From Candidatus Zambryskibacteria bacterium RIFCSPHIGHO2_01_FULL_43_25 (GTDB lineage Bacteria; Patescibacteriota; Minisyncoccia; Phycocordibacterales; Zambryskibacteraceae): a stretch of 64,000 bases of DNA. A program made the position numbers and the translations under genes. Under the pieces are notes generated by a model. That model was not told the origin of the DNA. It saw only the letters and a program-made list of their open reading frames with translations, and ran no database searches. This document shows, piece after piece, positions 6,611 through 47,655 of the stretch (the stretch's first letter is position 1; the number at the start of each line of letters is the position of its first letter). The stretch spans positions 2,445 through 66,444 of the forward strand of contig MHVD01000015.1 in NCBI GenBank assembly GCA_001823695.1, written 5' to 3'.

Positions 6611-6640
6611 TTGATAATCTTTCCTTGTCTGATAGAATAT

Positions 6641-6770
6641 CCCGTAGTAGAAAATGACATAGTGAATAATCACAGGAAAATAGACAAAACAATGGACAAA
6701 AAGTCGATATTACCAAAAGCATCAATAAGACAACCTACTCCAAAAGAGTAATGTCATTTTTCACTACGGG
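6641..6770 (+). repeat. inverted-repeat element (family a): CCCGTAGTAGAAAATGACAT ... ATGTCATTTTTCACTACGGG abutting frr ATG
   Basis: 20-bp arms are near-perfect reverse complements; second copy at 41647-41766. Confidence 0.6.
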
Positions 6771-7325
6771 ATGACGTATAATTTTTCTCCATTAAAACAG
6801 AAAATCTCCGAGACCGAAGAATGGCTCCGGAAGGAATTTTCAACAATCAGAACCGGCCGAGCAACACCGGTTATTCTGGATGCGGTCAGAGTTGACTCTT
6901 ACGGTTCCAAAATGCCTATAAACCAGATTGGCAGTATCAGCGTGGAAGATCCGAAAACTCTGCGAATTGTCCCTTGGGATATGACGCAGATAAAACCGAT
7001 TGAAAAAGCTGTCGTTGAAGCCAACCTTGGACTCTCCGTGAATGTTGACGACAAGGGCTTGAGGGTGATTTTCCCCGAGCTGACAAGCGAACGCAGACAA
7101 TCTTTGGTAAAGGTTACAAAGCAAAAACTGGAAGAAGCTCGCATCGCCCTGCGGATAGAGAGGGAGAGGGTATGGGACGAAATACAAAATCAAGAAAAGA
7201 AAGGCGATATGGGCGAAGACGACAAGTTCCGTCTCAAGAATGATATGCAAAAAATAATTGACGAGGCGAATAAAAGACTTGAAGATTTCGGCGACAAGAA
7301 GGAGAAGGATATTTTAGAATCATAA
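6771..7325 (+). CDS. frr: ribosome recycling factor
   Basis: 184 aa; TIRTGRATP...DKGLRVIFPELTSERRQSL matches RRF. Confidence 0.9.
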   Translation: MTYNFSPLKQKISETEEWLRKEFSTIRTGRATPVILDAVRVDSYGSKMPINQIGSISVEDPKTLRIVPWDMTQIKPIEKAVVEANLGLSVNVDDKGLRVIFPELTSERRQSLVKVTKQKLEEARIALRIERERVWDEIQNQEKKGDMGEDDKFRLKNDMQKIIDEANKRLEDFGDKKEKDILES

Positions 7326-18431: not shown

Positions 18432-18468
18432 GGGAGCGGTCACAATGTGTGCCCGCTCCTTTTGTTTA
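18432..18468. terminator. bidirectional intrinsic terminator GGGAGCGG...CCGCTCC + TTTTGTTT
   Basis: Between convergent genes. Confidence 0.55.
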
Positions 18469-19566
18469 AGAAATTATTCTTACCACTCCATTTTCAGCAT
18501 CCACCTCTACCTTGTTACCGTCTTTTAATATTTCTGTTGCGTTGCCAGTTCCGACGATGCAGGGGATGTTTAATTCTCTGCTCACTATTGCAGCGTGAGA
18601 TAGAAGCCCGCCCTGGTCAGTAATTATTGCTCCGGCCTTCTTGCAAGCCGGCATAAGTTCCGGGGAGGTCGTCTCTGCTACAAGAATGTCTCCGTCATCC
18701 ATTTCATCAAATAATCTTGTTAATATACTAAAATCGGAATAGTAATCTGTGGAGATTACTTTTATTTTTCCTATTGCTTTACCTTTGTTAGCAACCACAC
18801 CCACTATCTCACGTTTCTCTTTCTTAGATTCCTTAATAAATCTAGACACAATTTTCTTAGCGTCTTCTCCCTCAATGTAAGTCATCGCTCCATCTTGTGC
18901 ATACTGGACAAATACCTGTGCGCGGGCGTTGAGTAACTTCTCGGGAACCGCCTCACCGTCAAAAAGTCTTGGCACTTCCTCAACTCTGTACATTTTGAGC
19001 TGTTCAATCGGAACAGAAAATTGTTTGGATATTAAAGTAATCAGTTGGTCAGCATAACCTCCGCTAAAAATCAGCTGATTCAAGTATTGTCGGCCAGCAC
19101 CTTTGATTTCTTCAAAGATTTCAATATTATGAGTGAGCTCTTTTGATGGATTGTGCTCCAATTTCATATATACCCTGTCTGTATAGAAAAATTCAGTTTT
19201 TGAATAGAAGCTAAACATCTCGGAAATAAGGGTAAAAGATTTGACCGCCTCTTCTCTGGTCAGTTGACTCTTTTTGAGCAAAACTTCAAAAAAAATTGTA
19301 GACCGGTCTTTATACTCCTGAAAATCTTTTACGTATTGAGTGAAGAACTTTTCACTACTAAGTAAGGTCAAACCGTCTTGCAGTGTCTTTTCAATGACCT
19401 TTCTTGGCAGATAGCTTGTCCATATTCCGTTTACTCCCATTAGTAAACAGTCAAGGTTTTTATAATGTCCTCCGAAGACATCGGATAAAAGGTACACGAG
19501 GCCTCCTTTTAAGCGGAATAAACGTTGATAATCTTCTGATTTTATATGTGGGAATCCGGCAGTCAT
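18466..19566 (-). CDS. PEP-utilizing-enzyme mobile (His swivel) domain protein with ~270-aa unknown N-domain
   Basis: C-terminal TDQGGLLSHAAIVSRELNIPCIVG matches the swivel phospho-His motif. Confidence 0.65.
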   Translation of the reverse strand: MTAGFPHIKSEDYQRLFRLKGGLVYLLSDVFGGHYKNLDCLLMGVNGIWTSYLPRKVIEKTLQDGLTLLSSEKFFTQYVKDFQEYKDRSTIFFEVLLKKSQLTREEAVKSFTLISEMFSFYSKTEFFYTDRVYMKLEHNPSKELTHNIEIFEEIKGAGRQYLNQLIFSGGYADQLITLISKQFSVPIEQLKMYRVEEVPRLFDGEAVPEKLLNARAQVFVQYAQDGAMTYIEGEDAKKIVSRFIKESKKEKREIVGVVANKGKAIGKIKVISTDYYSDFSILTRLFDEMDDGDILVAETTSPELMPACKKAGAIITDQGGLLSHAAIVSRELNIPCIVGTGNATEILKDGNKVEVDAENGVVRIIS

Positions 19567-19853
19567 GATCTTTTCAGTATTTTTACAACCCCAACATTAG
19601 CATCTACCTCGACTAGGTCGCCATCTTTTAAGACTTGTGTAGCAACCTTGGTGCCAATAATACAAGGTTTATGAAGTTCTCTACTAATTATCGCGGCATG
19701 GCACAAAACACCCCCTTCGTCGGTAATAATAGCTGACACATTTTTAAGTCTCGGTGTAAATTCTGGTGTTGTTTGGGGAGCTACCAAAACTGAATTAACG
19801 GGAATGTTTTGCAAATCTTTTTTTAATAAAACCACCTTTACTATCCCGGTCAC
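19563..19853 (-). CDS. standalone PEP-utilizing-enzyme mobile domain (96 aa)
   Basis: TDEGGVLCHAAIISRELHKPCIIG; start/stop overlap (ATGA) with downstream gene. Confidence 0.6.
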   Translation of the reverse strand: MTGIVKVVLLKKDLQNIPVNSVLVAPQTTPEFTPRLKNVSAIITDEGGVLCHAAIISRELHKPCIIGTKVATQVLKDGDLVEVDANVGVVKILKRS

Positions 19854-19936
19854 TTTTCCTTTATATGCGATATCTCCCTTAATTTCTTTGCTCCCATTTT
19901 TCTCTTGAGTTTGTGGAATTATCCTACGGTACTTAT

Positions 19937-21604
19937 TTAATGCGTTACTGTCAGAGTAAATAATTTGCCTGTTATATATTGTGCAAAGAAGATAATATTT
20001 TGACCTTTTTTTATTTCATTCCAATCAAAATTACCTCCGGACCCCATCAGTTTAATGATTTCGTCTGGCGTTAAAAAATAAAGGAGCCTCTTTTTCACAG
20101 AGAAAGTTTTTGCCAGGTAATTAAACAAATGGGGTAAATATTCCTCGTCAAAAAACAGAAAAGGATTGTGATTTCTGACCTTATTTAGTAGCTTTTCGTT
20201 TTCTTTTAAAAGATTCCGGTATAGAGTATTTTCAATGGCTTTGTCTAAATTAAATACAAAAAGATGATAAGACCAATACCTCAAGTAAAACTTATTAAAT
20301 TTTTTAAATTGATTTATAACCCATTGTTGTGATTTTTTGTCTAGATCGGTATTGATAAAACTTTGTGTCAACTTTATTCGTTGATCAATAATCTTTTTAA
20401 AATTTTTCAAAATACTGACTAATTTACCTTTTTTAACATACTTAATTATTTGATCTTTTACCCGTTGATCATCTTCAAAACTCTTATAACCCTTAAGGAA
20501 AGATTTCTCTGAAAAATAAAACAAACCTTTACTTTTAAACTCAAAAGTAGATTTATAAATACCAGTTTGGACTAAAAATGGATAATATATCGCGGTCAGG
20601 GACATGTCTCTTGATATATGGTTTATATATTGCTGATGAGGTTTTTTGACCTTATCTAATTTATCTAATGTAGTGATCGGTCTGCTTTGGGTAATATAAA
20701 ATTTCCCATTTTCATAAGCCCATTCAATATCGCAAGGAAATCCGTAATGGTTTTCTATTTTTACAATCAGATCAGCCAATTCAAGTATTTGACTTTCCTT
20801 TAAAACTTGAGAAGACGCTTGCGGTTTATAGATTTCTTTCCACTCATTTTCTCCGCTTCTCGATTTATACAGACCTCTCTTTTGAGTATTTACCGTTGTA
20901 TCAATTATTTTTCTTGGTTCCTTTTCAACAACATAAGAATCAGGAGTTATAGCTCCAGATACGATAGCTTCTCCAAGCCCAAAGCCAGCTTCGATAATGA
21001 GTTGATTTCTATCTTCTGTAATCGGATGGACTGAAAATGCTACCCCCGATACTTCCGACTGAACCATCTTCTGCACTACAACAGCTACAGAAATATCCGT
21101 GCCGTGAAGTTCTTTCTCAAAGCGATAAAAGATTGCCCTCGGAGTAAAGAGAGAAGACCAGCATTTCTTAACTTTATCGAGCAAGTCATCTTCCGTGGTG
21201 TTCAAATAGCTCTCAAGTTGACCCGCCCAAGCGTGCTCTGTTCCGTCTTCGGCCGTAGCAGAGGATCGGACAGCGACAAATTCTGTTTTAAGGAATTCGA
21301 ACTCTTTTTTAATCTCGTTACAGATATCAGATAGAATCTTCTGTTTTTCTATAAGTCCTCGTATTTTTTCTGAAGCTCTCTCAACAGTGTGAATTGCTTT
21401 ATGATCGACTGTCTTTAGAATTGCATCAATCTCCTGGGTTAAATCAGTCTCGTGGAGAAAGTGGTCAAAGGTGGCTGAGAGGATTACAAAACCATTGGGA
21501 ACAGGAATTCCGACCCGTGTCATTTCACCCAAAGAGGCACCCTTGCCGCCTGCCTTGTCGGCGTCTTTTTTAGTCAGCTTACTAAAAGGAGAGGTATATT
21601 TCAT
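19937..21604 (-). CDS. PEP synthase / pyruvate phosphate dikinase N-terminal ATP-grasp domain protein with C-terminal extension
   Basis: N-terminal ~330 aa match PPDK_N nucleotide-binding domain (KAGGKGASLGEM..., VAVRSSATAEDG); no swivel or TIM-barrel domain in same ORF. Confidence 0.7.
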   Translation of the reverse strand: MKYTSPFSKLTKKDADKAGGKGASLGEMTRVGIPVPNGFVILSATFDHFLHETDLTQEIDAILKTVDHKAIHTVERASEKIRGLIEKQKILSDICNEIKKEFEFLKTEFVAVRSSATAEDGTEHAWAGQLESYLNTTEDDLLDKVKKCWSSLFTPRAIFYRFEKELHGTDISVAVVVQKMVQSEVSGVAFSVHPITEDRNQLIIEAGFGLGEAIVSGAITPDSYVVEKEPRKIIDTTVNTQKRGLYKSRSGENEWKEIYKPQASSQVLKESQILELADLIVKIENHYGFPCDIEWAYENGKFYITQSRPITTLDKLDKVKKPHQQYINHISRDMSLTAIYYPFLVQTGIYKSTFEFKSKGLFYFSEKSFLKGYKSFEDDQRVKDQIIKYVKKGKLVSILKNFKKIIDQRIKLTQSFINTDLDKKSQQWVINQFKKFNKFYLRYWSYHLFVFNLDKAIENTLYRNLLKENEKLLNKVRNHNPFLFFDEEYLPHLFNYLAKTFSVKKRLLYFLTPDEIIKLMGSGGNFDWNEIKKGQNIIFFAQYITGKLFTLTVTH

Positions 21605-23720: not shown

Positions 23721-23943
23721 TACTGTATAATTTCTAACGGGATGAATCCCGTAAGAAATAGGAAATACTCCCTAGAAAGAAATTAAAACGGGGATTAAAG
23801 TTAATTATTTAAAAAAAGCCAAAATATTGGTTGCGATGCATAAGTATTTCCGTAATTAAACGGTTTCCGTTGTGCTAACACAACGAGTAAGGGTGATATG
23901 AACGGAGTTTTACAAGATAAACTGCATAATTTCTAACGGGATG
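23721..23943 (+). repeat. start-codon-abutting element (family g) copy 1
   Basis: 5' end ...ATGAATCCCGTAAGAAATAGGAAAT, 3' end TTTACAAGATAAACTGCATAATTTCTAACGGG fused to ftsI ATG. Confidence 0.65.
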
Positions 23944-25653
23944 AAACAACAGTCAGTACGGAGAATCCGAATAATTTCCACTGGCATCTTTTTGTTTGCT
24001 ATGGTGCTTGTCAGCAGACTCTATTTTCTTCAAATAGTTTCGGGGGATGAACTTGCCGGCAGGGCCGACAGGCAGTACGTCCAGTCAAGCTACGATTACT
24101 TCAACCGCGGCTCCGTTTTTCTTACCAGCAAAACCGGTGAAAAGGTCTCTGCGGCAACGTTAAAGACCGGCTTCATCGTGGCGCTAAATCCGAAACTGAT
24201 TGAAGACCCGGAGATGTTGTATAACACGCTTTTACCTTTGATTTCAATTGAAAACAGGGAGGCCTTTCTTGAGAAAGCGGAAAAGTCTGACGATACGTAC
24301 GAACAAATAGCTCAAAAAATTCCAAAAGAAATTGCTGACGAGATTTCAGCTCTAAAAATACCCGGAGTTTCCATATATAAACAAAGATGGAGATATTATC
24401 CCGGCAACACTCTGGCGGCGCACACATTGGGCTTTATTGCATACAAGGAGGACGAATTGGCCGGAAGGTACGGCCTTGAGAGATATTATGAAGATACGCT
24501 GAATCGCAACAACGACTCGGTGTTTGTTAATTTCTTCGCAGAAATTTTTTCCAATGTTGAAAGCGGGGTGTCCGACGAAAAAAAATTGGAAGGAGACATC
24601 GTAACGAGCATTGAGCCGACAGTCGAGGCCTTTCTTGAGGAGGAGCTTCGTAAAATAAACGAGAAGTGGTCGTCCCAATATTCGGGAGGCATCATTATCA
24701 ATCCGATGAATGGCGAAATTTACGCGATGGCCATTAATCCAACCTTTGACCCAAACAGCATCGGAAGCGCCAAAAATTCCGATATCTTCAAGAATCATCT
24801 CGTTGAGAGCGTGTATGAGATGGGCTCTATCATAAAACCTCTAACCATTGCCGCCGGTCTGGACGCGGGAGCCATAACCGCCAAGTCCACATACTTTGAC
24901 GCCGGCTTTCTGACTCTCAACAACAAAACAATATCAAACTACGACGGTAGGGGGAGGGGACTGGTTTCTATGCAGGAGGTGCTCAATCAATCCCTCAACA
25001 CCGGCGCCGCCTTTGCAGTCAGCGCCATGGGCAAGGGGACTTTTGCCAAATATATGTTTGATTTCGGAGTGGCTGAAGAGACCGGCATTGACCTGCCGAA
25101 CGAGACTCACGGTCTTGTAGAGAACCTGAAAAGTCCACGCGATATTGAATACGCTACTGCTTCCTATGGCCAGGGTATGGCGCTCACCCCGATAGAAACC
25201 GTTCGCGCCATGGCGGCGCTTGGTAATGGCGGGATGCTCGTGAATCCCCACATTGTAACGAAAATAGATTACTCAATCGGCGGAGGCAAGAAAATTGTGC
25301 CCAATCCAAGTAAACAAGTTCTTACCAAAGAAACCTCCGAAGAGATTACCAGAATGTTGGTTCATGTGGTTGATAACGCGCTTCTCAACGGCCAAGCGAA
25401 AATTCCCAATTACAGCGTGGCGGCAAAAACGGGTACAGCCCAAGTTGCCAATCCCGAAGGCGGAGGATACTATACGGATGTGTTCCTTCACTCATTTTTC
25501 GGTTATTTTCCGGCTTATAATCCGCAATTCCTGGTGTTTCTGTACACTTTTGACCCCAAAGAGGTGAAATATGCTTCGGAAACGCTCACTGTCTCTTTCC
25601 TTGATATAACCAAATTTTTAATAAATTATTATGAAATACCGCCCGACCGTTAA
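23941..25653 (+). CDS. ftsI: peptidoglycan D,D-transpeptidase FtsI (PBP3-like)
   Basis: SIIKP (SxxK) transpeptidase motif; dcw position. Confidence 0.85.
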   Translation: MKQQSVRRIRIISTGIFLFAMVLVSRLYFLQIVSGDELAGRADRQYVQSSYDYFNRGSVFLTSKTGEKVSAATLKTGFIVALNPKLIEDPEMLYNTLLPLISIENREAFLEKAEKSDDTYEQIAQKIPKEIADEISALKIPGVSIYKQRWRYYPGNTLAAHTLGFIAYKEDELAGRYGLERYYEDTLNRNNDSVFVNFFAEIFSNVESGVSDEKKLEGDIVTSIEPTVEAFLEEELRKINEKWSSQYSGGIIINPMNGEIYAMAINPTFDPNSIGSAKNSDIFKNHLVESVYEMGSIIKPLTIAAGLDAGAITAKSTYFDAGFLTLNNKTISNYDGRGRGLVSMQEVLNQSLNTGAAFAVSAMGKGTFAKYMFDFGVAEETGIDLPNETHGLVENLKSPRDIEYATASYGQGMALTPIETVRAMAALGNGGMLVNPHIVTKIDYSIGGGKKIVPNPSKQVLTKETSEEITRMLVHVVDNALLNGQAKIPNYSVAAKTGTAQVANPEGGGYYTDVFLHSFFGYFPAYNPQFLVFLYTFDPKEVKYASETLTVSFLDITKFLINYYEIPPDR

Positions 25654-25692: not shown

Positions 25693-25911
25693 CAATTTCT
25701 TACGGAATGAATCCCGTTAGAAATAGGAAATGCCAATAAACAAAAATTAGATATAAACAAGTCATGACTTTACTCGAAAAAGAAGCGGGGATAAGAAACT
25801 GGAGCTCAGGCATTTCCGTTGAAGAAAATGACTTTAGCCGTATTAATATAAGATGTATCGGTATGTCCAAATTGGCTTTACAAAATTAACTCATGGATTT
25901 CTTACGGGATG
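25693..25911 (+). repeat. start-codon-abutting element (family g) copy 2
   Basis: Same terminal sequences as copy 1, variable interior; 3' end fused to murF ATG. Confidence 0.65.
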
Positions 25912-27210
25912 AAGCAAATTTTTAAGAAAATAATAGTTGCCGTGCTGACTTGGGAGGCGCGTCTTGTGTTGGCAAAATATAAGCCGAAAATTGTTGCTGT
26001 CACGGGAAGCGTCGGCAAGACGGGAAGCAAGGACGCCATATATTGTGTTTTGTCCAAATTCTTTTTTGTCCGTAAGAGTGAAAAAAGCTTCAACAGCGAA
26101 ATCGGAGTACCGCTGGCCATCCTAGGTTTACCAAATGCATGGAGCAATCCACTCCTGTGGCTGACGAATCTATCGGAAGGGCTCATACTTATTTTGTTTA
26201 AAGCTAGATACCCGCAATGGCTTGTTCTTGAAGTTGGTGCGGACAGACCGGGAGATATTGCTGGAATTGCAAGGTGGCTTCGGCCGGACATTGTGGCCGT
26301 AACGAGGCTAGGCAAGACCCCAGTCCACATTGAATTTTTTGAATCAGCGGAGGAGCTCTTCAAAGAGAAGCGTTCTCTTATAAAATATCTTAAACCGGAA
26401 GGGTCGCTGGTTCTCAATTATGATGATGAGGATGTGCGCAAATTTTCCGAAAACTTCTCCGGAAATATAAAGTACTTCGGCCTAGAAACGCAGGCGGATA
26501 TCTTTGGTTCATATTATGAAATTAATTACAAAGAAAAATCAGGAATAAAAATTCCTGCCGGATTTTCATACAAGGCGGATGCAAGTGGTTTGGTAAAAAC
26601 CGTATCGGTGAATGGCTGCATAGGAAGGCAGTATATGTACGCTACTCTTTGTGCGTTGGCTGTAGGGCTTGCTCTTAAGCTTGACCTGCATGAAATGACG
26701 CAGGCATTAAGCGAGTTTGATCCGCCTCGGGGCAGAATGAACCTGATTTCCGGAATAAGAGATAGTCTTGTCATTGACGATTCGTACAATTCTTCGCCCG
26801 TAGCTCTTATGGAAGCGCTGGAGAGTCTAAAGTTTATTAAATCCTCCGGCAGGAAAATTGCGGTTCTGGGAGATATGCTTGAACTCGGGACCCATACGGT
26901 TGATGCCCACAGAGAGGCGGGAGAAAAGGCGGGGCAATTCTGCGATATTCTTGCTACGGTTGGATTGCGGGCGCAGAATATCGCGATGGGCGCAATTGAA
27001 GCTGGGATGAAAGACAAAAATATATTTCAATACGAGAATTCGCGCGAAGCCGGAAAGAAACTGAAATCCAAAATCGCCGAGGGTGATATTGTTTTAATAA
27101 AAGGTTCGCAGGGTGTCAGGATGGAGAGAGTGGTTGAGGCGGTGATGGCGCATCCTGAAAATAAGGAGAAAATCTTGGTGAGACAGGATGAGGAGTGGAA
27201 AAACAGATAA
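25909..27210 (+). CDS. murF: UDP-MurNAc-tripeptide--D-Ala-D-Ala ligase MurF
   Basis: Mur ligase P-loop VTGSVGKTGSK; dcw position. Confidence 0.8.
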   Translation: MKQIFKKIIVAVLTWEARLVLAKYKPKIVAVTGSVGKTGSKDAIYCVLSKFFFVRKSEKSFNSEIGVPLAILGLPNAWSNPLLWLTNLSEGLILILFKARYPQWLVLEVGADRPGDIAGIARWLRPDIVAVTRLGKTPVHIEFFESAEELFKEKRSLIKYLKPEGSLVLNYDDEDVRKFSENFSGNIKYFGLETQADIFGSYYEINYKEKSGIKIPAGFSYKADASGLVKTVSVNGCIGRQYMYATLCALAVGLALKLDLHEMTQALSEFDPPRGRMNLISGIRDSLVIDDSYNSSPVALMEALESLKFIKSSGRKIAVLGDMLELGTHTVDAHREAGEKAGQFCDILATVGLRAQNIAMGAIEAGMKDKNIFQYENSREAGKKLKSKIAEGDIVLIKGSQGVRMERVVEAVMAHPENKEKILVRQDEEWKNR

Positions 27211-27253: not shown

Positions 27254-27520
27254 ATGGAAAATAAAAATCTAAATGATGATAATGATTTAGTTGATAGGAA
27301 TGCAAAGAGGATGAAAGAATCTTCTAGTAAGAATCTTTCTGTAAAAAAACACCAGAGCCAAGTTCACTTGGCTTTTATTGGGGCAGTTGGTATCGTTTTG
27401 GGTGTATTTGTGGATAGTATCTTAAAACTTACAAATAACCTGTCTACTTGGGTGGTTATCGTAATCGGACTAATTTTGATGATTGCAACTGGACTATTGC
27501 TACAGAATTTGAGCAGGTAG
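27254..27520 (+). CDS. small membrane protein (88 aa)
   Basis: Two C-terminal TM helices; no motif. Confidence 0.3.
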   Translation: MENKNLNDDNDLVDRNAKRMKESSSKNLSVKKHQSQVHLAFIGAVGIVLGVFVDSILKLTNNLSTWVVIVIGLILMIATGLLLQNLSR

Positions 27521-27525
27521 AAGAG

Positions 27526-27560
27526 GGGAATTAAGAATCTGGAATAAGGAATAAAAAAAC
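27526..27560 (+). repeat. stop-codon-adjacent GGAATAAGGAAT-type tandem repeat (family f)
   Basis: GGGGAATTAAGAATCTGGAATAAGGAATAAAAAAAC. Confidence 0.4.
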
Positions 27561-27599
27561 ACCCCCCAACGTCCCATTAATACGGGAGTCGGGGGGTGT
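27551..27599 (-). terminator. intrinsic terminator ACACCCCCC...GGGGGGTGT with T-run on - strand
   Basis: Shares TACGGGAGTCGGGG core with terminator at 43137-43188. Confidence 0.55.
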
Positions 27600-28365: not shown

Positions 28366-28432
28366 TTAAAACAGAACAAATATATCATTTTTACAAGAAA
28401 AATGTTAGATTTTTTGCTTTATTTAATTTGTT

Positions 28433-28462
28433 ATTCTAGTATTTTGCAAAACATTAGAATAG
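28433..28462. repeat. degenerate copy of palindrome c (TATTCTAGTATTTTGCAAAACATTAGAATA)
   Basis: Shares CTAGTATTTTGCAAAAC core with copies at 8671 and 58826. Confidence 0.4.
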
Positions 28463-28877
28463 ATAAGTTTGTGTTTTTATATACAGTTTGTTAGCATAAC
28501 ATAACTCCGGCACGGCGATTTGCCCCGCAATCTAAGTACCGAGCTGGGGTTGTCTGGTCGCGGGGAAGTGTCCAGACTTGTGTGGCTATGGTTAGCCTTA
28601 TCGACCATTGAGTTGGTATCGGTGCATTACCATAAGCCATCAACCCTTCCGCGAGGAAGGCGTATATTACCCTCAACGCTGTATAAGTGTTTGAGGGTAA
28701 CTTGTTTTTATACTTTCACCCTTGCCGCTCCCTGTCTTTTTTTCCACGACTCAAACTATTCTACTATTCGCGCGAATTAGAGATATGTTTAGGTTTTGTA
28801 ATAATTTGGTTTTTTTATTTTACACCTAACATTTATAATGTTATTATTTTCTCGGAAACCTGAACCTTGGAGGGTGT

Positions 28878-29213
28878 ATGGCAAGGAAAAAGAAGACTCA
28901 GCCACCCAAGTACTACGTGGAACCGATCCCGCTTGAGGGGTCCCCAGTCAATTCGTGGCTCGCCGAGAGGTTGGATGCGGAAAAGGACACCTTGAGTGCG
29001 TACGACGCTCAGGGGATCCATCACAACGTCTGGGTATGCGACCTCGAGACCATGAGACTTCTCAAGTTCATCGCCGAGAGCCGTGCGAGGGAGGGCTGGT
29101 CGTACGAGGTCTTCAACATGATGGATGACGGCCGCCTAAAGAAGATCAGGGGTGAGTATCGAGTCAAACAACCTCGCAGGGGAGTCTTCTTCCCGGCACC
29201 GACGCACTCCTGA
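28878..29213 (+). CDS. hypothetical protein, 111 aa, ~57% GC cassette
   Basis: GGAGGG SD 5 nt upstream; own terminator 29232-29271. Confidence 0.4.
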   Translation: MARKKKTQPPKYYVEPIPLEGSPVNSWLAERLDAEKDTLSAYDAQGIHHNVWVCDLETMRLLKFIAESRAREGWSYEVFNMMDDGRLKKIRGEYRVKQPRRGVFFPAPTHS

Positions 29214-29231
29214 CATCGCAAGCCACTTCAA

Positions 29232-29271
29232 ACCGCCCCCGCACATTGCGTGCGTGGGGCGGCTTTGTTTT
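29232..29271 (+). terminator. intrinsic terminator CCGCCCCCGCAC...GTGCGTGGGGCGG + TTTGTTTT
   Basis: GC stem followed by T-run. Confidence 0.5.
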
Positions 29272-29278
29272 ACTGACT

Positions 29279-29318
29279 ATTCTATTTGATATTTTGCGCA
29301 AAATATCAAATAGAATAC
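29279..29318. repeat. 40-bp perfect palindrome (family e): TATTCTATTTGATATTTTGCGCAAAATATCAAATAGAATA
   Basis: Second copy at 31669-31698. Confidence 0.5.
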
Positions 29319-29335
29319 AGTTTTACTTATGTATA

Positions 29336-29365
29336 TTGAGCTTATTATAAGTTTCAGGTTATAAT
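29336..29365 (+). promoter_or_regulatory. promoter TTGAGC-18-TATAAT with ATG 7 nt downstream (leaderless candidate)
   Basis: Read directly upstream of ogt-like gene. Confidence 0.4.
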
Positions 29366-29372
29366 TAATCTC

Positions 29373-29624
29373 ATGACCAAATTTTCTGAAAAAGTTTACA
29401 GTGTGGTATCAAAAATCCCAAAAGGGAAGACCCTAACGTACAAACAGGTTGCCCGTCTTGCCGGCAGGCCGAAAGCTTATAGAGCAGTAGGCAATATTTT
29501 AAATAAAAATACCAGCTCCAAAATTCCATGCCACAGAGTTATTCGTTCTGACGGCAAGATTGGAGGATACAGATGGGGAAGCCAGAAGAAAAAAGAAATA
29601 CTCAAAAAAGAAAAAGTTATATAG
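29373..29624 (+). CDS. O6-alkylguanine-DNA alkyltransferase C-terminal domain protein (Ogt-like, 83 aa)
   Basis: Active-site motif IPCHRVI and helix-turn-helix YKQVARLAG. Confidence 0.65.
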   Translation: MTKFSEKVYSVVSKIPKGKTLTYKQVARLAGRPKAYRAVGNILNKNTSSKIPCHRVIRSDGKIGGYRWGSQKKKEILKKEKVI

Positions 29625-29685
29625 CTTTTAACTCCTCATTTATCTTCTATATTTGTTGTTTTCTAATACTCAACCAACTATTTTC

Positions 29686-29955
29686 CTATTCGATCGAATT
29701 AGAGATGTGTTTGACGATGGGGTGAGTATTATTCGATGGGGAATACCACATCTGGAGACTTTTCTGTTCTCGGTCAACAATTCCAGCAGAATATAAAACT
29801 CCCAAATGTTTGGAAGTTGCTGTAAACGATAGTTTGATAGTATCAGCAATATCTCCAACCATTACCTTCTTTTTCTTTTTTAGGATTTTAATGATCTGAA
29901 GCCTCCTTCTGTTGGCCAGAGCTTTTAATATCTTTTCAGCTTCTTTTTCTATCAT
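29686..29955 (-). CDS. arsR: ArsR/SmtB-family HTH repressor (paralog 2)
   Basis: 89 aa, ~60% identical to paralog 1. Confidence 0.7.
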   Translation of the reverse strand: MIEKEAEKILKALANRRRLQIIKILKKKKKVMVGDIADTIKLSFTATSKHLGVLYSAGIVDREQKSLQMWYSPSNNTHPIVKHISNSIE

Positions 29956-29961
29956 ACAATC

Positions 29962-30001
29962 ATAATAAACTATTTTCTAATTCGTACAAATTAGAAAATA
30001 G
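29962..30001 (-). promoter_or_regulatory. leaderless-type promoter TTTGTA-17-TATTAT overlapped by 32-bp palindrome CTATTTTCTAATT-CGTACA-AATTAGAAAATAG (candidate ArsR2 operator)
   Basis: 13-bp perfect arms; -10 lies 6 nt before ATG. Confidence 0.5.
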
Positions 30002-30065
30002 TGTATATGTTAGCTATGACTAGTTGCCGAACCAGCATTAGTGATTGTTTTTTAAGGCAACCAGT

Positions 30066-30323
30066 TTACATCCTAGACTTTACAAGTGTGGACAGTTCAT
30101 TTATGTGGGCTTCTTTGTCTGCGGTCATTTTTTGCCAGAAGGCGAGCACTTCTGCGTCTCCCTCGGCGTCTTTGAGATATTCGTCTTTTATGCGCCAGAG
30201 ACTTCTGTTTTCAACTGTAAGCTGAAGCAGGAGGTTGTATAAATTATTTTTGAGCATTTTGCAAAAGCTAGCTAATAATGATTGATTATATAACAAATCT
30301 CGTGCGAGATATTGGTTCCGCAT
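30066..30323 (-). CDS. hypothetical helical protein (85 aa)
   Basis: ORF only. Confidence 0.25.
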   Translation of the reverse strand: MRNQYLARDLLYNQSLLASFCKMLKNNLYNLLLQLTVENRSLWRIKDEYLKDAEGDAEVLAFWQKMTADKEAHINELSTLVKSRM

Positions 30324-30389
30324 GATGTGGGGCCGGTTTCTAATGGGGCGATGAAAGCATCAAAAAAAGCGAAAAGTCTCAAAAACCCA

Positions 30390-30427
30390 TTGGTATAATA
30401 AATAACGATCGTTATTTATTATACCAA
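30390..30427. repeat. 38-bp perfect palindrome (family d): TTGGTATAATAAATAACGATCGTTATTTATTATACCAA
   Basis: Identical copies at 35049-35084 and 58917-58954; each arm contains extended -10-like TGGTATAAT. Confidence 0.55.
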
Positions 30428-30502
30428 TCCGGAAATTCAAAAAAAGTGATGGCAAGAGGGAGAGTGAATTGGGGAAAATCAATGAAATCTTACAACGGGA
30501 CA

Positions 30503-30540
30503 AATGAAAAAGCGGGGCCGAGTTTGCTCATCGGCCCCGC
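30503..30540 (-). terminator. intrinsic terminator GCGGGGCCGAGTTTGCTCATCGGCCCCGC + T-run (- strand)
   Basis: Read directly downstream of GC-rich gene. Confidence 0.55.
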
Positions 30541-30560
30541 TATGGGGAGTGAATGACGAG

Positions 30561-30926
30561 TCAGTCCCCAACGCGTTTGTCGTATCTGATCGTACGGTCG
30601 AAGGCATCATCTTCATTTACATCCTCGACCAGTTGACGGACTCTTTCCGTCTGCTGGTCTGGTCTCGATGCCTTCCTGCCGGACCGTTGAGGCCTGGGCG
30701 ACCTCCGCACCTGACTTATTGGTGGGTCGGTGGCCTTCTGCCCAGCGGTCATAATGCGCCTCTTGAACTCCTTGAGGCTTTCCTTGGGGCCCCTGTACAT
30801 CTCGTAGTACTCGTTCCAGGCCCTGTACCCGGCGGTTTGGTAGTCACCCTCCCGCTTGATCTCAAGGACTCTCCTATCGATCGCGGAACGGATTTCAACC
30901 TCGGCCATACCCTTGATGTTGGCCAT
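30561..30926 (-). CDS. hypothetical protein, 121 aa, ~60% GC cassette
   Basis: GGGAGAGG SD; own terminator. Confidence 0.4.
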   Translation of the reverse strand: MANIKGMAEVEIRSAIDRRVLEIKREGDYQTAGYRAWNEYYEMYRGPKESLKEFKRRIMTAGQKATDPPISQVRRSPRPQRSGRKASRPDQQTERVRQLVEDVNEDDAFDRTIRYDKRVGD

Positions 30927-31144
30927 TGTTCCTCTCCCGTGAACAATGTGAGACGACGTACGCCTTCTAATGTTTATTGTAGCATATTAGATATTAAAAG
31001 TCAATATAAAGTGTGGAAAAATTAGAAATATAGCTCTACGTAAGGGTTTTTTACAGGTAAAAAATTTTCGCATAGCTTATCCAGCCAAAACTAAAAACAT
31101 TCTCATATTCTTAAGAATATGAGAATGTTTTATTTCTGAATTTA

Positions 31145-31591
31145 TTAAAACAATGAATCAACGATATCTTTGATATCTTTGCCATCAGCTTTGCCTTTAA
31201 GCTCTTTGGCGATTGCACCCATAAGCATTCCTATTTTTGAAGGGTCTGTTATACCGAGTTCGTTTTTCTTCTTTTGGGCGATTGGTAATATTTCATCTTT
31301 GGACATCATTTTTGGGGCGTATTCTTCAAGGATTGCCAATTCCTTCTTTTCTTCATCTACCAAATCCTGACGGCCGCCTTTCTCAAACTGTTCAATTGAA
31401 TCTTTGTGCTGTTTTATACTGCGCATAATGACGGCAACTGCTTCGTCATCAGCGAGCTTCTCTGTTGGCTTCCTTCGTTTGGCGACAAGTTCGTTTGTAA
31501 ATGCTGCCAGAAGACCTCGCAGGGTATTGAGCCGGACTGTATCGCGGGCTTTCATAACCGCGGCTATTTCTTGTTGGATTTTGTCGTGCAT
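31145..31591 (-). CDS. yqeY: GatB/YqeY-domain protein
   Basis: LRGLLAAFTNEL ... DPSKIGMLMGAIAKELKGKADG YqeY signature; start at MHDKIQ. Confidence 0.75.
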   Translation of the reverse strand: MHDKIQQEIAAVMKARDTVRLNTLRGLLAAFTNELVAKRRKPTEKLADDEAVAVIMRSIKQHKDSIEQFEKGGRQDLVDEEKKELAILEEYAPKMMSKDEILPIAQKKKNELGITDPSKIGMLMGAIAKELKGKADGKDIKDIVDSLF

Positions 31592-31668
31592 GATAATTTC
31601 ATTATAACTAATAACAAACAACCTACAACTTACAACAAAAAACAAAAGACGAAAAACTAAACATTATT

Positions 31669-31698
31669 ATATTTGATATTTTGCGCAAAATATCAAAT
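31669..31698. repeat. palindrome family e copy 2 (TATTTGATATTTTGCGCAAAATATCAAATA)
   Basis: Identical 30-bp core to 29279-29318. Confidence 0.45.
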
Positions 31699-31757
31699 AG
31701 ATAAGGTAAAAAATAAACGAAGTTTAGTTAACTATGCAAAGCCGGACTTTGCATAAA

Positions 31758-32804: not shown

Positions 32805-33884
32805 ATGCAGACGATTCTCATTGTTCTAATAGTTTTTTTGGTCCTTCTTTCGGGGGCGCTTTTTTGGTTACTTTTTCGCGGACACAGAAAAGAGAATGGG
32901 CAAGATGGGATGGTGCTTCTACAGAACCAATTTAACGACCTTATACGAACCATAGACAGCAAACTGGGCGAATCACGCAAGGAAATGAGCGAGGCCGTTA
33001 AACACCAATTTAGCGAATCCCAGCGGCTCATAAGAGAGATAAATGAGGAAGTTAGCAAGAATCTTCTTGAGGTTGCCAAAGAACAGACCAAAGCAAATGA
33101 AGCCACGCGTCAGTTTGTGACAATTGCGGAACAATTGGCGAATTTGGAAAAGGTTTTGAAGCATCAGAAACAAAGAGGGAATCTGGGCGAGGCATCGCTC
33201 AAGCTCATTCTTGAAAATATACTGCCGCCAACTTCTTTCAAAATGCAGTATGAGTTTCCCGGCGGCGATGTCGTGGACGCGGTGATTATCACAAAAGACG
33301 GATTTATACCGATAGATGCCAAATTCTCGCTGGATAATTATCAGCGGGTTACGCAGGCAGTTGATGAAAATCAGAGGGAAGAGCTAGAAAAAGAATTCAG
33401 GAACGATTTGAAAAAGAGGATTGACGAAACCTCCAAGTATGTGCGGCCCAGCGACGGCACATTGCCATTTGCCTTTATGTATATTCCAGCGGAGGCGATC
33501 TACTACGACCTGCTTATAAACGAAGTTGGGGCGGTGAAAGTGAATACCCGCAACCTGATTGACTACGCTTACAATGAAAGGAAAGTGATTATCGTGTCGC
33601 CGACAACTTTCGCGGCGTATCTGCAATCAGTTTTGTATGGATTTAGAGCGTTCAAGATTGAAGAGAGCGCAAAGGACATAATGAAGCGGGTAGGGGAACT
33701 GGGCAGGCATCTCAAAGCGCACGATGACTATATGGGCAAACTAGGCAGTTCAATATCAACAACTGTAAACCATTACAATGCCGCTTATAAAGAGCTTGGA
33801 AAGATAGACAAGGATGTGGTTCGCATCACGGGAGAATCTCCGGGGATAGAGCCAGTAGTGCTGGATAGGCCTAGCACGGAATAA
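32805..33884 (+). CDS. rmuC: DNA recombination protein RmuC
   Basis: N-terminal TM + coiled coil + RmuC C-domain. Confidence 0.8.
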   Translation: MQTILIVLIVFLVLLSGALFWLLFRGHRKENGQDGMVLLQNQFNDLIRTIDSKLGESRKEMSEAVKHQFSESQRLIREINEEVSKNLLEVAKEQTKANEATRQFVTIAEQLANLEKVLKHQKQRGNLGEASLKLILENILPPTSFKMQYEFPGGDVVDAVIITKDGFIPIDAKFSLDNYQRVTQAVDENQREELEKEFRNDLKKRIDETSKYVRPSDGTLPFAFMYIPAEAIYYDLLINEVGAVKVNTRNLIDYAYNERKVIIVSPTTFAAYLQSVLYGFRAFKIEESAKDIMKRVGELGRHLKAHDDYMGKLGSSISTTVNHYNAAYKELGKIDKDVVRITGESPGIEPVVLDRPSTE

Positions 33885-33906
33885 AGAATCAGGAATAAAG
33901 AATACA
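33877..33906 (+). repeat. stop-codon-overlapping tandem repeat GGAATAAAGAAT x2 (family f)
   Basis: rmuC TAA lies within first repeat unit. Confidence 0.45.
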
Positions 33907-33993
33907 AAAAGAGAAGCAATCTTAATTGACAACATACTAACAAACTTAAGTTTGTTAGTATGTTGTATTTGTGATGTAGTTATATAAAAAGAA

Positions 33994-34129: not shown

Positions 34130-34283
34130 CGTTCACCTTGTTGTTGTGAGTGGGTTCTATGTTTCCAAAAGTATAATAGCATACTAAATATATATTTGTC
34201 AAATCTAAAACATGATCTCATAAAATACAGCTTTCACACTTGCTTTAGTAAGTATTATCCAGTAATATATTGCCTCGTATGGT

Positions 34284-34426
34284 CCCGTAAGAAACCCTGC
34301 CTGTGCAGGCAGGCGCGGTCACGGTTTCAGTTGGAACTGAATAATAGGCATGTCTTATAAGGGGTATAATATTTACAAATATAATTTTTAGCAGGGTGCG
34401 GCTGACCGCGACCTGTTTCTAACGGG
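34284..34426 (+). repeat. start-codon-abutting element (family g), short copy upstream of rplU
   Basis: TCCCGTAAGAAAC ... GACCTGTTTCTAACGGG fused to ATG. Confidence 0.5.
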
Positions 34427-34837
34427 ATGGCAGATAAAAAAGAAACTATCAAAAAAGCTACAAGTGCTCCTAAAAAGAGCTCGGCTAAAGTTGTGGCAAA
34501 AGAAAAACCTGCGACCAAGGGTGGGAAGGTGGAATCGGCTGTTATATTTACAGGAGGCAAGCAATATATCGTTTCGTCAGGAGACAGATTGAAGATTGAA
34601 AAGATAAAAGGGGATTATAAAGAGGGCGACAAGGTGAAGTTTGATAAAGTATTACTTACCGTAAATGGCGGTAAAGCGACACTGGGCAACCCCTTTATTT
34701 CCGGCGCGTCAGTTTCGGCGACAATTTCAAAGATAGGAAAAGCCAAGAAGGTTACGGTTATAAAATATAAACAAAAAAGCCGATATTTCAAAAAGCGAGG
34801 ACACAGGCAGCCATTTTTTGAAGTTGTGATTGACTAG
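34427..34837 (+). CDS. rplU: 50S ribosomal protein L21 with Lys-rich N-extension
   Basis: Core YIVSSGDRLKIEKI...VKFDKVLL matches L21. Confidence 0.85.
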   Translation: MADKKETIKKATSAPKKSSAKVVAKEKPATKGGKVESAVIFTGGKQYIVSSGDRLKIEKIKGDYKEGDKVKFDKVLLTVNGGKATLGNPFISGASVSATISKIGKAKKVTVIKYKQKSRYFKKRGHRQPFFEVVID

Positions 34838-35048: not shown

Positions 35049-35084
35049 TGGTATAATAAATAACGATCGTTATTTATTATACCA
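35049..35084. repeat. palindrome family d copy 2
   Basis: Identical to 30390-30427 core. Confidence 0.55.
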
Positions 35085-35136
35085 ATTAGAAAAACGTCAA
35101 AATTTAAGGAAACGTCAAGATTCTGTTATTAAGAAA

Positions 35137-37514: not shown

Positions 37515-37584
37515 ATATTATCACAGGGCAGGGAAGCGCGACAAAGGCTGTTTTACTGCACAAGCTGTGGGGAAGGTGGGGACA

Positions 37585-37634
37585 AATAAGAATTAGGAAT
37601 AAGGAATTAAGAATGACCTGTTTCTAACGGGATG
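37585..37634 (+). repeat. family f tandem repeat fused to a solo family g 3' end (GACCTGTTTCTAACGGGATGAA) with no downstream gene
   Basis: ATG followed by stop after 4 codons. Confidence 0.45.
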
Positions 37635-39121: not shown

Positions 39122-39127
39122 AAAGTT

Positions 39128-39218
39128 AGGAATAAAGAATTGAGAATAAAGAATTATGAATAGAAATTAATTGGCTGAGTTTGGGTTGTTCATTATTCCT
39201 AATTCCTTGTTCATAATT
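39128..39218. repeat. family f repeats in inverted arrangement (AGGAATAAAGAATTGAGAATAAAGAATTATGAA ... TTCATTATTCCTAATTCC)
   Basis: Forms long dyad between cysS start and corA end. Confidence 0.45.
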
Positions 39219-41554: not shown

Positions 41555-41595
41555 GTAGTATGGTTGTCTGTAGTTTGAATATAAGTCCCGTTAGA

Positions 41596-41766
41596 AACTG
41601 CGGGGAACGAATCGGGATAACATGAAAATGATAAATCCTGTAGTAGAAAATGACATTGTAGAAACTAGGAAAAGGGAGATACTTTAAAAAATAATGGAGG
41701 CAAATTTATCAATTATAATTACAAGACAAATTACTCGTAAGGAGTAATGTCATTTTTCACTACAGG
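41596..41766 (+). repeat. hybrid element: family g 5' arm (TCCCGTTAGAAAC) + family a arms (CCTGTAGTAGAAAATGACAT ... ATGTCATTTTTCACTACAGG) abutting rplI ATG
   Basis: Read directly. Confidence 0.55.
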
Positions 41767-42213
41767 ATGAAAGTCATACTCTTAAAAGATATTGCCAAAA
41801 TCGGCCATAAATACGAAGTGAAAAATGTCGCCGAAGGGTATGCGCAGAACTTTCTTTTTCCAAGAGGATTGGCAAAGATGGCTACTAGTTCCGCAATAAA
41901 TGAGTTGGAAGTTCTGAAAAGACAGCACGAGGAGGAAAGAAAGATAAGAGAGGATTTACTTTTGAAAAACTTAGGAGACGTAGAGTCGCTTATCATTGAA
42001 ACCGAAGAAAAAGCCAATGACCAAGGTCACTTATTTGCTGGTATTAATGCGCTGGAAATAGCAGAGATTATAAAAGAAAAAAGCAGACTGGATATTCCTG
42101 TTCAATGCATTGAGCTTGAAAAGCCGATAAAGGAAATCGGAGAACACAAAATTCCTCTGAAAATTCAGGACAAAAAAGCGGAGTTTACTTTAGTAGTAAA
42201 AGCAAAAGTATAG
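41767..42213 (+). CDS. rplI: 50S ribosomal protein L9
   Basis: MKVILLKDI...NFLFPRGLA L9 N-domain. Confidence 0.85.
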   Translation: MKVILLKDIAKIGHKYEVKNVAEGYAQNFLFPRGLAKMATSSAINELEVLKRQHEEERKIREDLLLKNLGDVESLIIETEEKANDQGHLFAGINALEIAEIIKEKSRLDIPVQCIELEKPIKEIGEHKIPLKIQDKKAEFTLVVKAKV

Positions 42214-43070: not shown

Positions 43071-43110
43071 ATTTCTAATTACTAATTTCTAATTGACCTA
43101 AAGCAACCAC

Positions 43111-43142
43111 GGGGAATAAAGAATTACGAATTAAGAATGAAG
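43111..43142. repeat. family f tandem repeat (GGGGAATAAAGAATTACGAATTAAGAATGAAG)
   Basis: Adjacent to terminator of GC-rich gene. Confidence 0.4.
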
Positions 43143-43188
43143 AAACCCCGACCCCCGCTCCGTCAGTTGACGGATACGGGAGTCGGGG
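43137..43188 (-). terminator. intrinsic terminator CCCCGAC...TCCGTCAGTTGACGGA...GTCGGGG + T-run (- strand)
   Basis: Contains TCCGTCAGTTGACGGA core also at 37714 and 58785. Confidence 0.55.
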
Positions 43189-45200: not shown

Positions 45201-45216
45201 ATAATTTTTTAACGGG

Positions 45217-45897
45217 ATGGATATCGTTATTGCAAAAAAAATAAGAAAATCTTTTCATGATGGTGAGAAAGAACTTGCTGTTTTGAAAGGGCTTGACCTT
45301 TCTGTCAAAAGGGGAGAATTCTTATCAATAACCGGCCGATCCGGTTCGGGTAAGAGCACCCTTCTTTATCAGCTGGGACTTCTTGACAGTCCGAACTCGG
45401 GAGAAATTTATATTGATGGCATTGAGATTACTTCGCTCTCCAACGACGAGAGAACAATGATGCGGCTTGGAGAGCTGGGGTACATTTTCCAAGATTATGC
45501 TCTGGTGCCGGAGTTGTCAGCTCTCGAAAACGTTTTGGTCCCGCTTCTGATGCAGGGCCTGAGCGCGGACAAAGCCAGGGAAAAAGCCAAACTTTCTCTT
45601 GAGAAAATAGGCCTCAGCGATCGGTTTGACCACTTGCCGAACCAGCTTTCCGGAGGGGAACAGCAGAGAGTTGCCATTGCCCGAGCGGTAGCTCATGACC
45701 CGAAGATTATCTTTGCCGACGAGCCGACAGCCAACCTGGACAGCGAAACGGCGGATGTAGTTCTCCAAAATTTTCTTGACCTCAACCGAGAAGGGCAGAC
45801 GATAATAATGGTGACTCACGAGCCTGAGTATGCGTCCTTAACTCATCGCATCGTCCAGCTTTCGGATGGCGTTATTGCTTCAGAAGTAGTAAATTAA
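45217..45897 (+). CDS. ABC transporter ATP-binding protein (MacB/LolD-type)
   Basis: Walker A GRSGSGKST, signature LSGGEQQRVAIARA, Walker B IIFADE. Confidence 0.85.
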   Translation: MDIVIAKKIRKSFHDGEKELAVLKGLDLSVKRGEFLSITGRSGSGKSTLLYQLGLLDSPNSGEIYIDGIEITSLSNDERTMMRLGELGYIFQDYALVPELSALENVLVPLLMQGLSADKAREKAKLSLEKIGLSDRFDHLPNQLSGGEQQRVAIARAVAHDPKIIFADEPTANLDSETADVVLQNFLDLNREGQTIIMVTHEPEYASLTHRIVQLSDGVIASEVVN

Positions 45898-45903
45898 AGA
45901 AAA

Positions 45904-46106
45904 AATGAATCCCGTAAGAAATAGGAAATGTAACATATATGAAAATAAAAAAGCAAACAATTTATATACTCGAAAAAGGAGATGCGGCTGGTTGTGGGAC
46001 ATAAACATTTCCGTAGTTAAATAGTTGGTAGGTATATTAATATTGAGCAAATAAGAAAAATTCATTTAAATTTTACAAGACAAACTAAATAATTTCTAAC
46101 GGGATG
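45904..46106 (+). repeat. start-codon-abutting element (family g) copy 3
   Basis: Flanked by ATGAA on both sides; removal plus one ATGAA restores a 16-bp spacer between ATPase stop and hlyD ATG. Confidence 0.65.
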
Positions 46107-47624: not shown

Positions 47625-47655
47625 AGAATCAGGAATTAGGAATTAAGAATTTAAA
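47618..47655 (+). repeat. stop-codon-overlapping tandem repeat (family f)
   Basis: GTGAATAAAGAATCAGGAATTAGGAATTAAGAAT; hlyD TAA inside first unit. Confidence 0.45.

Follow-up and report, generated by a model that had tools for sequence, protein, structure and literature searches.

Small repeats that abut the start codons of genes in Patescibacteria probably form a family of non-autonomous, MITE-like transposons, with 13-bp terminal inverted repeats (TIRs), a subterminal hairpin and a 5-bp duplication that rebuilds the start codon. The TIRs TCCCGTTAGAAAT ... ATTTCTAACGGGA enclose an interior of about 45 to 200 nt with no conserved ORF, and a conserved hairpin (A-GGAAAT-loop-ATTTCC-GT) lies beside one end. 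Integration takes place at 5'-ATGRA-3' and duplicates 5 bp, in some cases 4 or 6. After insertion at a start codon, one ATGRA would stay behind the native promoter or the upstream cistron, and the other, flush with the 3' TIR, would still head an intact ORF, so that essential genes would tolerate the insertion. Insertions at non-start ATGRA sites would presumably be lost by selection.

We analysed a window of 64,000 nucleotides from a groundwater Candidatus Zambryskibacteria MAG. With element limits defined as TCCCGT...ACGGGA, it contains four complete copies of this family (family 1), three of 195-198 nt and one of 145 nt, together with five solo arms and two copies of a sister family 2. Copy 1 (23747-23941, + strand, 195 nt) stands before ftsI. 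It is built of the 5' TIR TCCCGTAAGAAAT, a hairpin P2 with the base AGGAAAT...ATTTCCGT and the 3' TIR ATTTCTAACGGGA; its final A is the A of the ftsI start codon. Copy 2 (25712-25909, + strand, 198 nt) lies between ftsI and murF, and copy 3 (45910-46104, + strand, 195 nt) between the stop codon of an ABC ATPase gene (TAA, 45895-45897) and a HlyD-like gene. The short copy (34283-34427, + strand, 145 nt), with arms TCCCGTAAGAAAC/GTTTCTAACGGGA, has a GC-rich interior without the AGGAAAT hairpin and adjoins the ATG of the long, 136-aa reading of rplU. Pfam recognises FtsI, MurF, a HlyD-like protein and L21 in the downstream genes. The ends and islands of the three long copies are invariant in an alignment whose mean column identity is 76%.

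The direct duplications reported by the initial annotation are real. ATGAA is doubled around copy 1 (23742-23746 and 23941-23945), copy 2 (25707-25711 and 25909-25913) and copy 3 (45905-45909 and 46104-46108), and ATGG around the short copy before rplU. Equally real are the repeat arms that it placed before gene starts, which are far above chance in the window: the 5' arm 20-mer TCCCGTWAGAAATAGGAAAT has exact matches at 23747, 25712 and 45910 (0.02 expected), and the 3' arm with its ATG, ATAATTTCTAACGGGATG, at 23727, 23926 and 46089 (0.05 expected). The shorter ACGGGATG occurs eight times, on the + strand every time, and six of these run directly into an ORF (frr, ftsI, murF, rplU, ABC ATPase and hlyD-like). 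The occurrence at 23737 belongs to a solo arm, its ATG being the outer duplicate of copy 1; the one at 37627 has no ORF behind it.

Some details of the first description needed correction. Copies 1 and 2 are present, but each was assigned coordinates that also took in a separate solo 3' arm immediately before it (23730-23742 and 25695-25707, respectively). Removal of copy 3 leaves TAA, 7 nt and ATGAAAG, not the 16-bp spacer initially proposed. The arms are inverted repeats, as stated, and elsewhere normally perfect over 13 bp; a central mismatch, A.A or U.U, sets the window copies apart. It falls at arm position 7 in all four complete family-1 copies (23753/23935, 25718/25903, 34289/34421 and 45916/46098; A.A in three, U.U in one). 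This pair is T-A in almost every copy of other genomes, and the window thus holds two different substitutions at the same pair.

The start of rplU (window 34427-34837) is annotated in two ways: the NCBI version of L21 has 102 aa and begins 34 codons downstream, and the JGI/ENA version has 136 aa, counted from the element-abutting ATG. The true start is uncertain, since the Pfam L21 domain begins at residue 38. As to strand, the + strand carries all ten arm+ATG junctions of the window. Between about 47.7 kb and 62.7 kb, every gene lies on the - strand, none of them with an element; the convergent switch of gene orientation near 47.7 kb might mark a replication terminus.

The first of the solo arms, on the + strand like the others, is a 3' arm ATTTCTAACGGGA (13/13) at 23730-23742, just upstream of copy 1; its last A opens the outer ATGAA (23742-23746), and TGTATAAT overlaps its 5' side. 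A degenerate 3' arm ATTTCTTACGGAA (11/13) at 25695-25707 stands in the same way before copy 2, and the outer ATGAA (25707-25711) comes after it. Copies 1 and 2 therefore share the local structure arm-ATGAA-arm. The 3' arm GTTTCTAACGGGA (12/13) at 37620-37632 is followed by an ATG with no ORF behind it (ATGAAAACAAATTAG) and is flanked by two minus-strand genes. A degenerate 3' arm TTTTTTAACGGGA (11/13) at 45205-45217 adjoins the ATG of the ABC ATPase gene. The last is a family-1 5' arm, TCCCGTTAGAAAC (12/13), at 41586-41598, upstream of the rplI element of family 2. A tandem arm-ATGAA-arm junction is also seen in another genome (L027, 3489-3520), and a degenerate solo arm ATTTCTAAGGGAATG adjoins the ftsI start in a relative that is otherwise without the element (L100, 2468-2482). 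These two cases suggest repeated use of the same site.

The copy before rplI, initially taken for a hybrid, is really a member of the second, related family. It occupies 41636-41767 (+ strand), with the TIRs TCCTGTAGTAGAAAATGACATT / AATGTCATTTTTCACTACAGGA, and its last A doubles as the first base of the rplI start codon. Its twin at 6640-6771 (+ strand), with the TIRs TCCCGTAGTAGAAAATGACAT / ATGTCATTTTTCACTACGGGA, ends on the A of the frr start codon in the same manner; TAGAAT stands directly upstream of it, without an outer ATG. The family-2 TIRs are 22 nt long, TCCYGTAGTAGAAAATGACAT / ATGTCATTTTTCACTACRGGA, and both copies carry the same two central arm mismatches (AG vs GA).

Several other repeats populate the window. 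A GAAT-rich repeat (GGAATAAGGAATTAAGAAT-like) is found at 27516-27563, 33867-33914, 37571-37618, 39125-39172, 43102-43149 and 47607-47654, in intergenic DNA and often just past gene ends; one of its copies borders directly on the solo arm at 37620. In the same sense, the repeat is similar to the unusual 16S 3' tail (GGAATAATTCAA) of an element-bearing genome, L006. A perfect 36-nt palindrome, TGGTATAATAAATAACGATCGTTATTTATTATACCA, occurs three times (30391-30435, 35049-35093 and 58918-58962); it comprises two back-to-back extended -10 boxes and may, by its sequence, be a divergent promoter or operator. Further palindromic families (CTATACTAGT..TTTGCAAAA..ACTAGTATAG) lie at 28431-31701, 8673 and 58828, and cluster around small HTH-type genes at 28-32 kb. 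Apart from repeats, a pyruvate phosphate dikinase/PEP synthase-like gene (18466-21604, - strand) apparently consists of three ORFs (PPDK_N of 555 aa, PEP-utilizers of 96 aa and 366 aa), which could reflect a frameshift or a genuinely split gene.

Further copies were sought in related genomes, as the initial annotation had advised. A scan of species-representative genomes, in which an exact 20-mer of the 5' arm was required, gave 89 loci beyond the window, nearly all in Patescibacteria and with 1-6 per genome; by the nature of an exact-match scan, the apparent conservation of that end is partly an ascertainment effect. The hosts are Nomura-, Zambryski-, Taylor- and Wolfe-bacteria, other Paceibacterota and mislabelled 'Saccharibacteria' MAGs. 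In most of the 89 loci the partner arm ATTTCTAACGGGA follows 45-200 nt downstream, with length classes near 45, 77, 84, 105, 120 and 190 nt; in the longer classes, extra sequence has been inserted into the P2 loop or into the stretch from P2 to the far arm. The 13-bp TIRs normally form a perfect inverted repeat, and the arms pair in Watson-Crick fashion at 1009 of 1027 positions in 79 elements, where one arm is pre-matched by the scan and the other is the informative one. No phage carriage of the element appeared in IMG/VR (0 hits), and annotated plasmid insertion sequences showed chance similarity only (E at least 2).

Complete elements were counted with at most two arm mismatches in about 0.7 Mb of loci. 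Of the 88, 79 adjoin an ORF of 50 aa or more at its ATG, each with only one of its ends, and on the gene side the junction reads ACGGG|ATG without exception. Most of the others are minimal forms of 45-47 nt in ordinary intergenic DNA, limited to P1 (the pairing of arm to arm) and P2. These minimal forms (L020, L036, L041, L058, L081 and L082), two arms and the P2 hairpin only, are usually away from start codons and without the ATGRA duplication, and in several of them one arm contains a G.T pair (TAATGGGA); an origin as deletion derivatives or as footprints is possible. Clustering placed the genes next to elements in 54 unrelated groups out of 68; outside the window these genes include FtsH, GatC, MgsA, TrpRS, RecG and PAP2.

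A sign of insertion is the outer pentanucleotide, which equals the gene's own ATGNN in 60 of the 79 elements. Among the 62 with an outer ATG, NN is identical to that of the gene in 60, and shuffling of partners gives a mean of 23.7 and a maximum of 36. Since NN covaries with the second codon of the gene, the repeat is a true target duplication and not part of the element. A few duplications are of 4 or 6 bp, and a few copies have none (L008, L031). The reconstructed target is ATGRA, with R at +4 in 95% and A at +5 in 90% of cases, against 64% and 41% at ordinary starts, for which 308 promoter-proximal starts of the same loci served as reference; ATGAA and ATGGA together make up 85% of targets and 34.5% of ordinary starts. 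The target is narrower than ordinary starts, and this indicates a sequence preference for ATGRA beyond merely striking gene starts.

Empty orthologous sites, also sought on earlier advice, are present in relatives, and orthologues without any element are readily found. The same gene can bear an element of differing class or orientation in different genomes, as for FtsH (four genomes) and MurF (the window and L017). In the ten closest FtsI loci (JGI metagenomes, 49-56% identity), ftsL and ftsI overlap as TAATG or are separated by short spacers, and the ftsI-murF spacers measure 5 to about 115 nt. None of the ten has a complete element at ftsL-ftsI or ftsI-murF, and nine have no arm at all at these junctions; the sole exception is L100, with its degenerate match ahead of ftsI. 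In the source population, the insertions are fixed and have one orientation: no empty sites were found, and every contig encoding an identical FtsI or HlyD has the element. This lack of polymorphism weighs against a mobile element, as do the varying length of the duplication beside a constant gene-side junction and the few copies that have no duplication. Dispersal, a covarying duplication, the preference for ATGRA and empty orthologous sites all fit the reading of a MITE-like element that targets start codons, one of the two that the initial annotation had offered.

A search of 765 kb of loci for TIR pairs spaced by 0.33-4 kb and bounded by a matching duplication revealed no autonomous copy, which also counts against the transposon reading; the only matching long-range TIR pairs join neighbouring small elements around ftsI. 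A 2-kb interval between arm-like sites in L041, considered as an autonomous element, was rejected, as it holds ordinary genes. No transposase or recombinase lies near the solo arms or is seen among the 25 Pfam families listed of 65 (72 window ORFs). The TIR may resemble piggyBac/IS1380 ends (CCC..TAGAAA). We infer that a transposase, DDE-type or other, acts in trans.

The elements are small and non-coding (45-198 nt), with TIRs, a target duplication, dispersed copies and empty orthologous sites; among the testable traits of a MITE, only a cognate transposase is without a match (765 kb of loci, the surroundings of the solo arms and 25 of the 65 window Pfam families). They share with bacterial MITEs the small size, lack of coding, TIRs, target-site duplication, dispersal and presence or absence between relatives, and bacterial MITEs are often co-transcribed with neighbouring genes (PMC10969869, PMC2229807). 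They differ in that their target is the start codon (ATGRA), rebuilt by duplication, in that about 90% adjoin an ORF start, and in their Patescibacteria hosts. A 2024 review of prokaryotic MITEs mentions neither start codons nor Patescibacteria, and full-text literature searches returned no such element and no MITE family in Patescibacteria.

By analogy, the element works most like the Correia elements (CREE/NEMIS) of Neisseria, which are MITE-like, 100-150 bp long and form an mRNA hairpin next to gene starts (PMC2649163). That hairpin alters the expression of the adjacent gene, partly via RNase III; the Correia elements have, in addition, 26-bp TIRs, a TA duplication, promoter creation, IHF binding and Neisseria hosts (PMC2649163). 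In contrast, the element described here has a 13-bp TIR, an ATGRA duplication and no internal promoter that we found; there is no sequence similarity, and Correia elements have no start-codon specificity. Identity with a Correia element is ruled out by the 13-bp TIR, the ATGRA duplication and the Patescibacteria hosts. The bcr1 repeat of the Bacillus cereus group is likewise small, with a mobility tied to a pentanucleotide (TTTAT), but its target and sequence are other and it has no tie to start codons (PMC6542083).

The long copies of the window lie inside the operons mraZ-rsmH-ftsL-ftsI-murF and ftsX-ABC-hlyD. The MIRUs of mycobacteria, which Supply et al. reportedly presented in 1997, are said to be intergenic intra-operon repeats whose ends overlap the flanking stop and start codons. 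Their small ORFs would keep translation coupled. Unlike the element here, to which their sequence is unrelated, MIRUs are direct repeats in tandem and have neither TIRs nor target duplications.

All window copies are predicted to fold into a closing helix P1, from arm to arm, and an inner helix P2 (AGGAAAT/ATTTCC), with z-scores of -1.9 to -3.9; the internal pairing of CATTTCCGT with AGGAAATG, noticed early on, is P2 and is predicted in every fold. The P1 duplex is worth about -18 kcal/mol, or -14 in the window copies with their central A.A or U.U mismatch. These folds would suit a cis-acting RNA leader, whose arm helix regulates or couples downstream translation, with both AUGs side by side, and for which mobility only spreads the leader. 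So would the compensated arm variants AGAAGT/ACTTCT and AGAGAT/ATCTCT, which recur in several genomes, and the P2 upper stem, in which pairing is kept through 21 variants; perfect hairpins are, however, equally expected of DNA-level transposase binding sites. Conservation is limited to the arms and the P2 base, with a covariation term of -0.04, and the consensus structure of the ~120-nt class supports P1 and P2 only, the interior not aligning. Nor do arm mismatches in the gene sense prefer G.U (6, against 7 A.C); on this full tally, an RNA-strand signature in which all arm wobbles are G.U was dropped.

Orientation speaks on both sides of this reading. All copies of the window have one orientation, as first noted, but across genomes the hairpin end is gene-proximal in 53 elements and distal in 18, which a cis-acting leader does not readily accommodate. 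It is uniform inside each subfamily, for example 26/26 in the ~120-nt class, and such uniformity counts against random insertion: it needs directional insertion or selection on the transcript. Neither the uniform orientation nor the recurring compensated arms follow from a simple transposon; directional insertion through asymmetric ends could be the cause of both, as could transcript selection. The elements are kept ahead of essential genes, with recognisable promoters upstream, so that the transcript should include the element; yet the downstream genes are functionally unrelated and their orthologues fare well without it. The frame opened by the outer ATG always runs through the 5' arm and stops after 4-40 codons, 4-169 nt short of the true AUG; neither its length nor the gap is conserved, which again argues against a leader. 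A conserved leader peptide was also discarded, as only arm-encoded residues are common and lengths vary.

Rfam has no match at the elements, whether over the window at gathering thresholds or in the window copies and six canonical short-form loci at permissive E-values, in agreement with the early remark that no described element was recognised. A riboswitch or other cis-regulatory RNA class is rejected on the two orientations, the 54 gene clusters, the unconserved interior, the absence of G.U bias and of any Rfam match. Taken as sequence patterns, the two orientations, conservation of the arms and the P2 base only, the lack of G.U bias and the lack of an Rfam match point to DNA-level constraints. 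The other early proposal, that of a mobile leader masking the initiation region, agrees with the anatomy, yet no RNA-specific signal was found for it (G.U 6 vs A.C 7, interior unconserved). On balance, a cis-acting RNA leader is a possible but rather unlikely account of the family.

Single-strand or site-specific recombination would offer another origin: an IS200/IS605-type PATE, an integron-attC-like or Xer-type site, or an invertible switch between the arms. A subterminal hairpin with a specific pentanucleotide target, strict orientation within subfamilies, arm-ATGAA-arm junctions (23730-23759; L027) that resemble a 13-5-13 recombination site, and the confinement of the ten window arm+ATG sites to one strand would all be in keeping with it. 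A true duplication that covaries with the second codon is, however, not made by IS200/IS605 elements, and no recombinase or Y1 transposase is nearby, either near the solo arms or among the window Pfam families listed (25 of 65). A PATE or a REP/RAYT element is accordingly dismissed on the perfect TIRs, the covarying duplication and the absence of Y1/RAYT among those 25 of 65 families; the window strand bias is the sole point in its favour.

The attC site has its R'' box (RYYYAAC) on the 5' side and R' (GTTRRRY) on the 3' side, with extrahelical bases, and lies 3' of cassettes. The arms GTTAGAA...TTCTAAC have the reverse polarity of these R''/R' boxes and the elements lie at gene 5' ends, which excludes an integron attC site. 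An invertible switch meets the absence of an internal promoter and a single orientation in all contigs of the population. An invertible promoter (inverton) is discarded on the same grounds, no internal promoter rising above shuffles and the promoters lying outside the element. We consider an origin by such recombination quite improbable.

The promoter context agrees with the MITE-like transposon. Outside the window, the frequency of TAnnnT hexamers is highest 6-8 nt ahead of the outer ATG (47 occurrences in 72 elements), and at empty orthologous sites the same promoter stands directly before a single ATG. The promoter ahead of the outer ATG, together with the empty sites, indicates that insertion usually strikes the five opening bases of a leaderless gene; given the -10 box before the outer ATG, such genes, once leaderless, probably acquire the element as a structured leader in their transcripts. 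In the window, where the long copies lie within operons, the start codon itself serves as the target. Inside the elements, neither promoter nor terminator signals exceed shuffles; a promoter in the 3' arm is excluded, as the hexamer 6-8 nt before the ATG is ATTTCT or NATTTC, not -10-like.

SD-like motifs are scarce in the window. An element-bearing Nomurabacteria genome (L006, 660-735) has a 16S rRNA 3' end ...GGAAGCTGGTCGTGGAATAATTCAATT, without the CCTCC anti-SD. The anti-SD motif is missing in about half of Parcubacteria (PMC9297842). Such a setting would also favour a bypass at the level of RNA or ribosome, either by cleavage at the 3' foot of the arm helix, giving a leaderless AUG-mRNA, or by a gene 60/'byp'-like hop between the identical ATGRA, as the host lineage appears reliant on leaderless, SD-free initiation (PMC9297842). 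A structured, untranslated gap bounded by identical 5-mers, the two AUGs at the same helix end (readable from the sequence) and the retention of RNase III in CPR (PMC12641178) would be consistent with this. Against it, Rfam shows neither a ribozyme nor an intron signature, the take-off codon is not followed by a stop or rare codon, the outer ATG is missing from some copies (the frr copy of family 2, L008 and L031), and the window copies are intra-operon, where there is no 5'-terminal AUG. Such a bypass is very unlikely.

Bypass elements, known from T4 gene 60 and from the mitochondrial 'byps', have matching codons around a structured untranslated stretch, and the byps are mobile. They lie inside ORFs, with take-off and landing of a peptidyl-tRNA. 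The matching 5-mers and structured gap of the element are a resemblance only.

It is likewise doubtful, and we hold it unlikely, that the element serves leaderless translation without SD as a portable relay of initiation. Ribosome entry would then stay at the outer ATGRA, as a 5'-terminal AUG or a re-initiation site, and the 13-bp arm helix, stacked on the adjacent hairpin, would set the rebuilt AUG beside it. Ribosomes might be handed over by unzipping through the uORF, by a shunt or hop from one of the identical 5-mers to the other, or through a cut at the helix foot that recreates a leaderless mRNA. If true, the relay would explain the strict orientation of subfamilies and the retention before essential genes across Paceibacteria.

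Under the MITE-like transposon that we favour, the element would be transcribed from the native promoter as a 5' leader or, in the window operons, as an intercistronic spacer. The 13-bp arm helix would mask the true AUG. In a working model, ribosomes from the outer ATG would translate the short uORF through the 5' arm and open P1, and the opened helix would permit initiation or re-initiation at the true AUG, in lineages often without an anti-SD. Our confidence in any particular translation mechanism is much lower than in the mobile element itself.

Altogether, an element, probably mobile, that inserts exactly at start codons (ATGRA) and rebuilds them is widespread in Patescibacteria and apparently undescribed; transposons that choose start codons and repair them are absent from the MITE reviews consulted. 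It would show a route by which mobile DNA enters compact, gene-dense genomes without killing essential genes. The elements confuse start-codon annotation, as for L21 (NCBI vs JGI/ENA), and are usable as strain and lineage markers for uncultured Patescibacteria. They would set a stable helix against the AUG of ftsI, murF, ftsH and trpS, in bacteria whose relatives often lack the anti-SD (PMC9297842), as does the element-bearing genome L006, and are thus a natural experiment on translation start in the Candidate Phyla Radiation, a group hardly studied experimentally.
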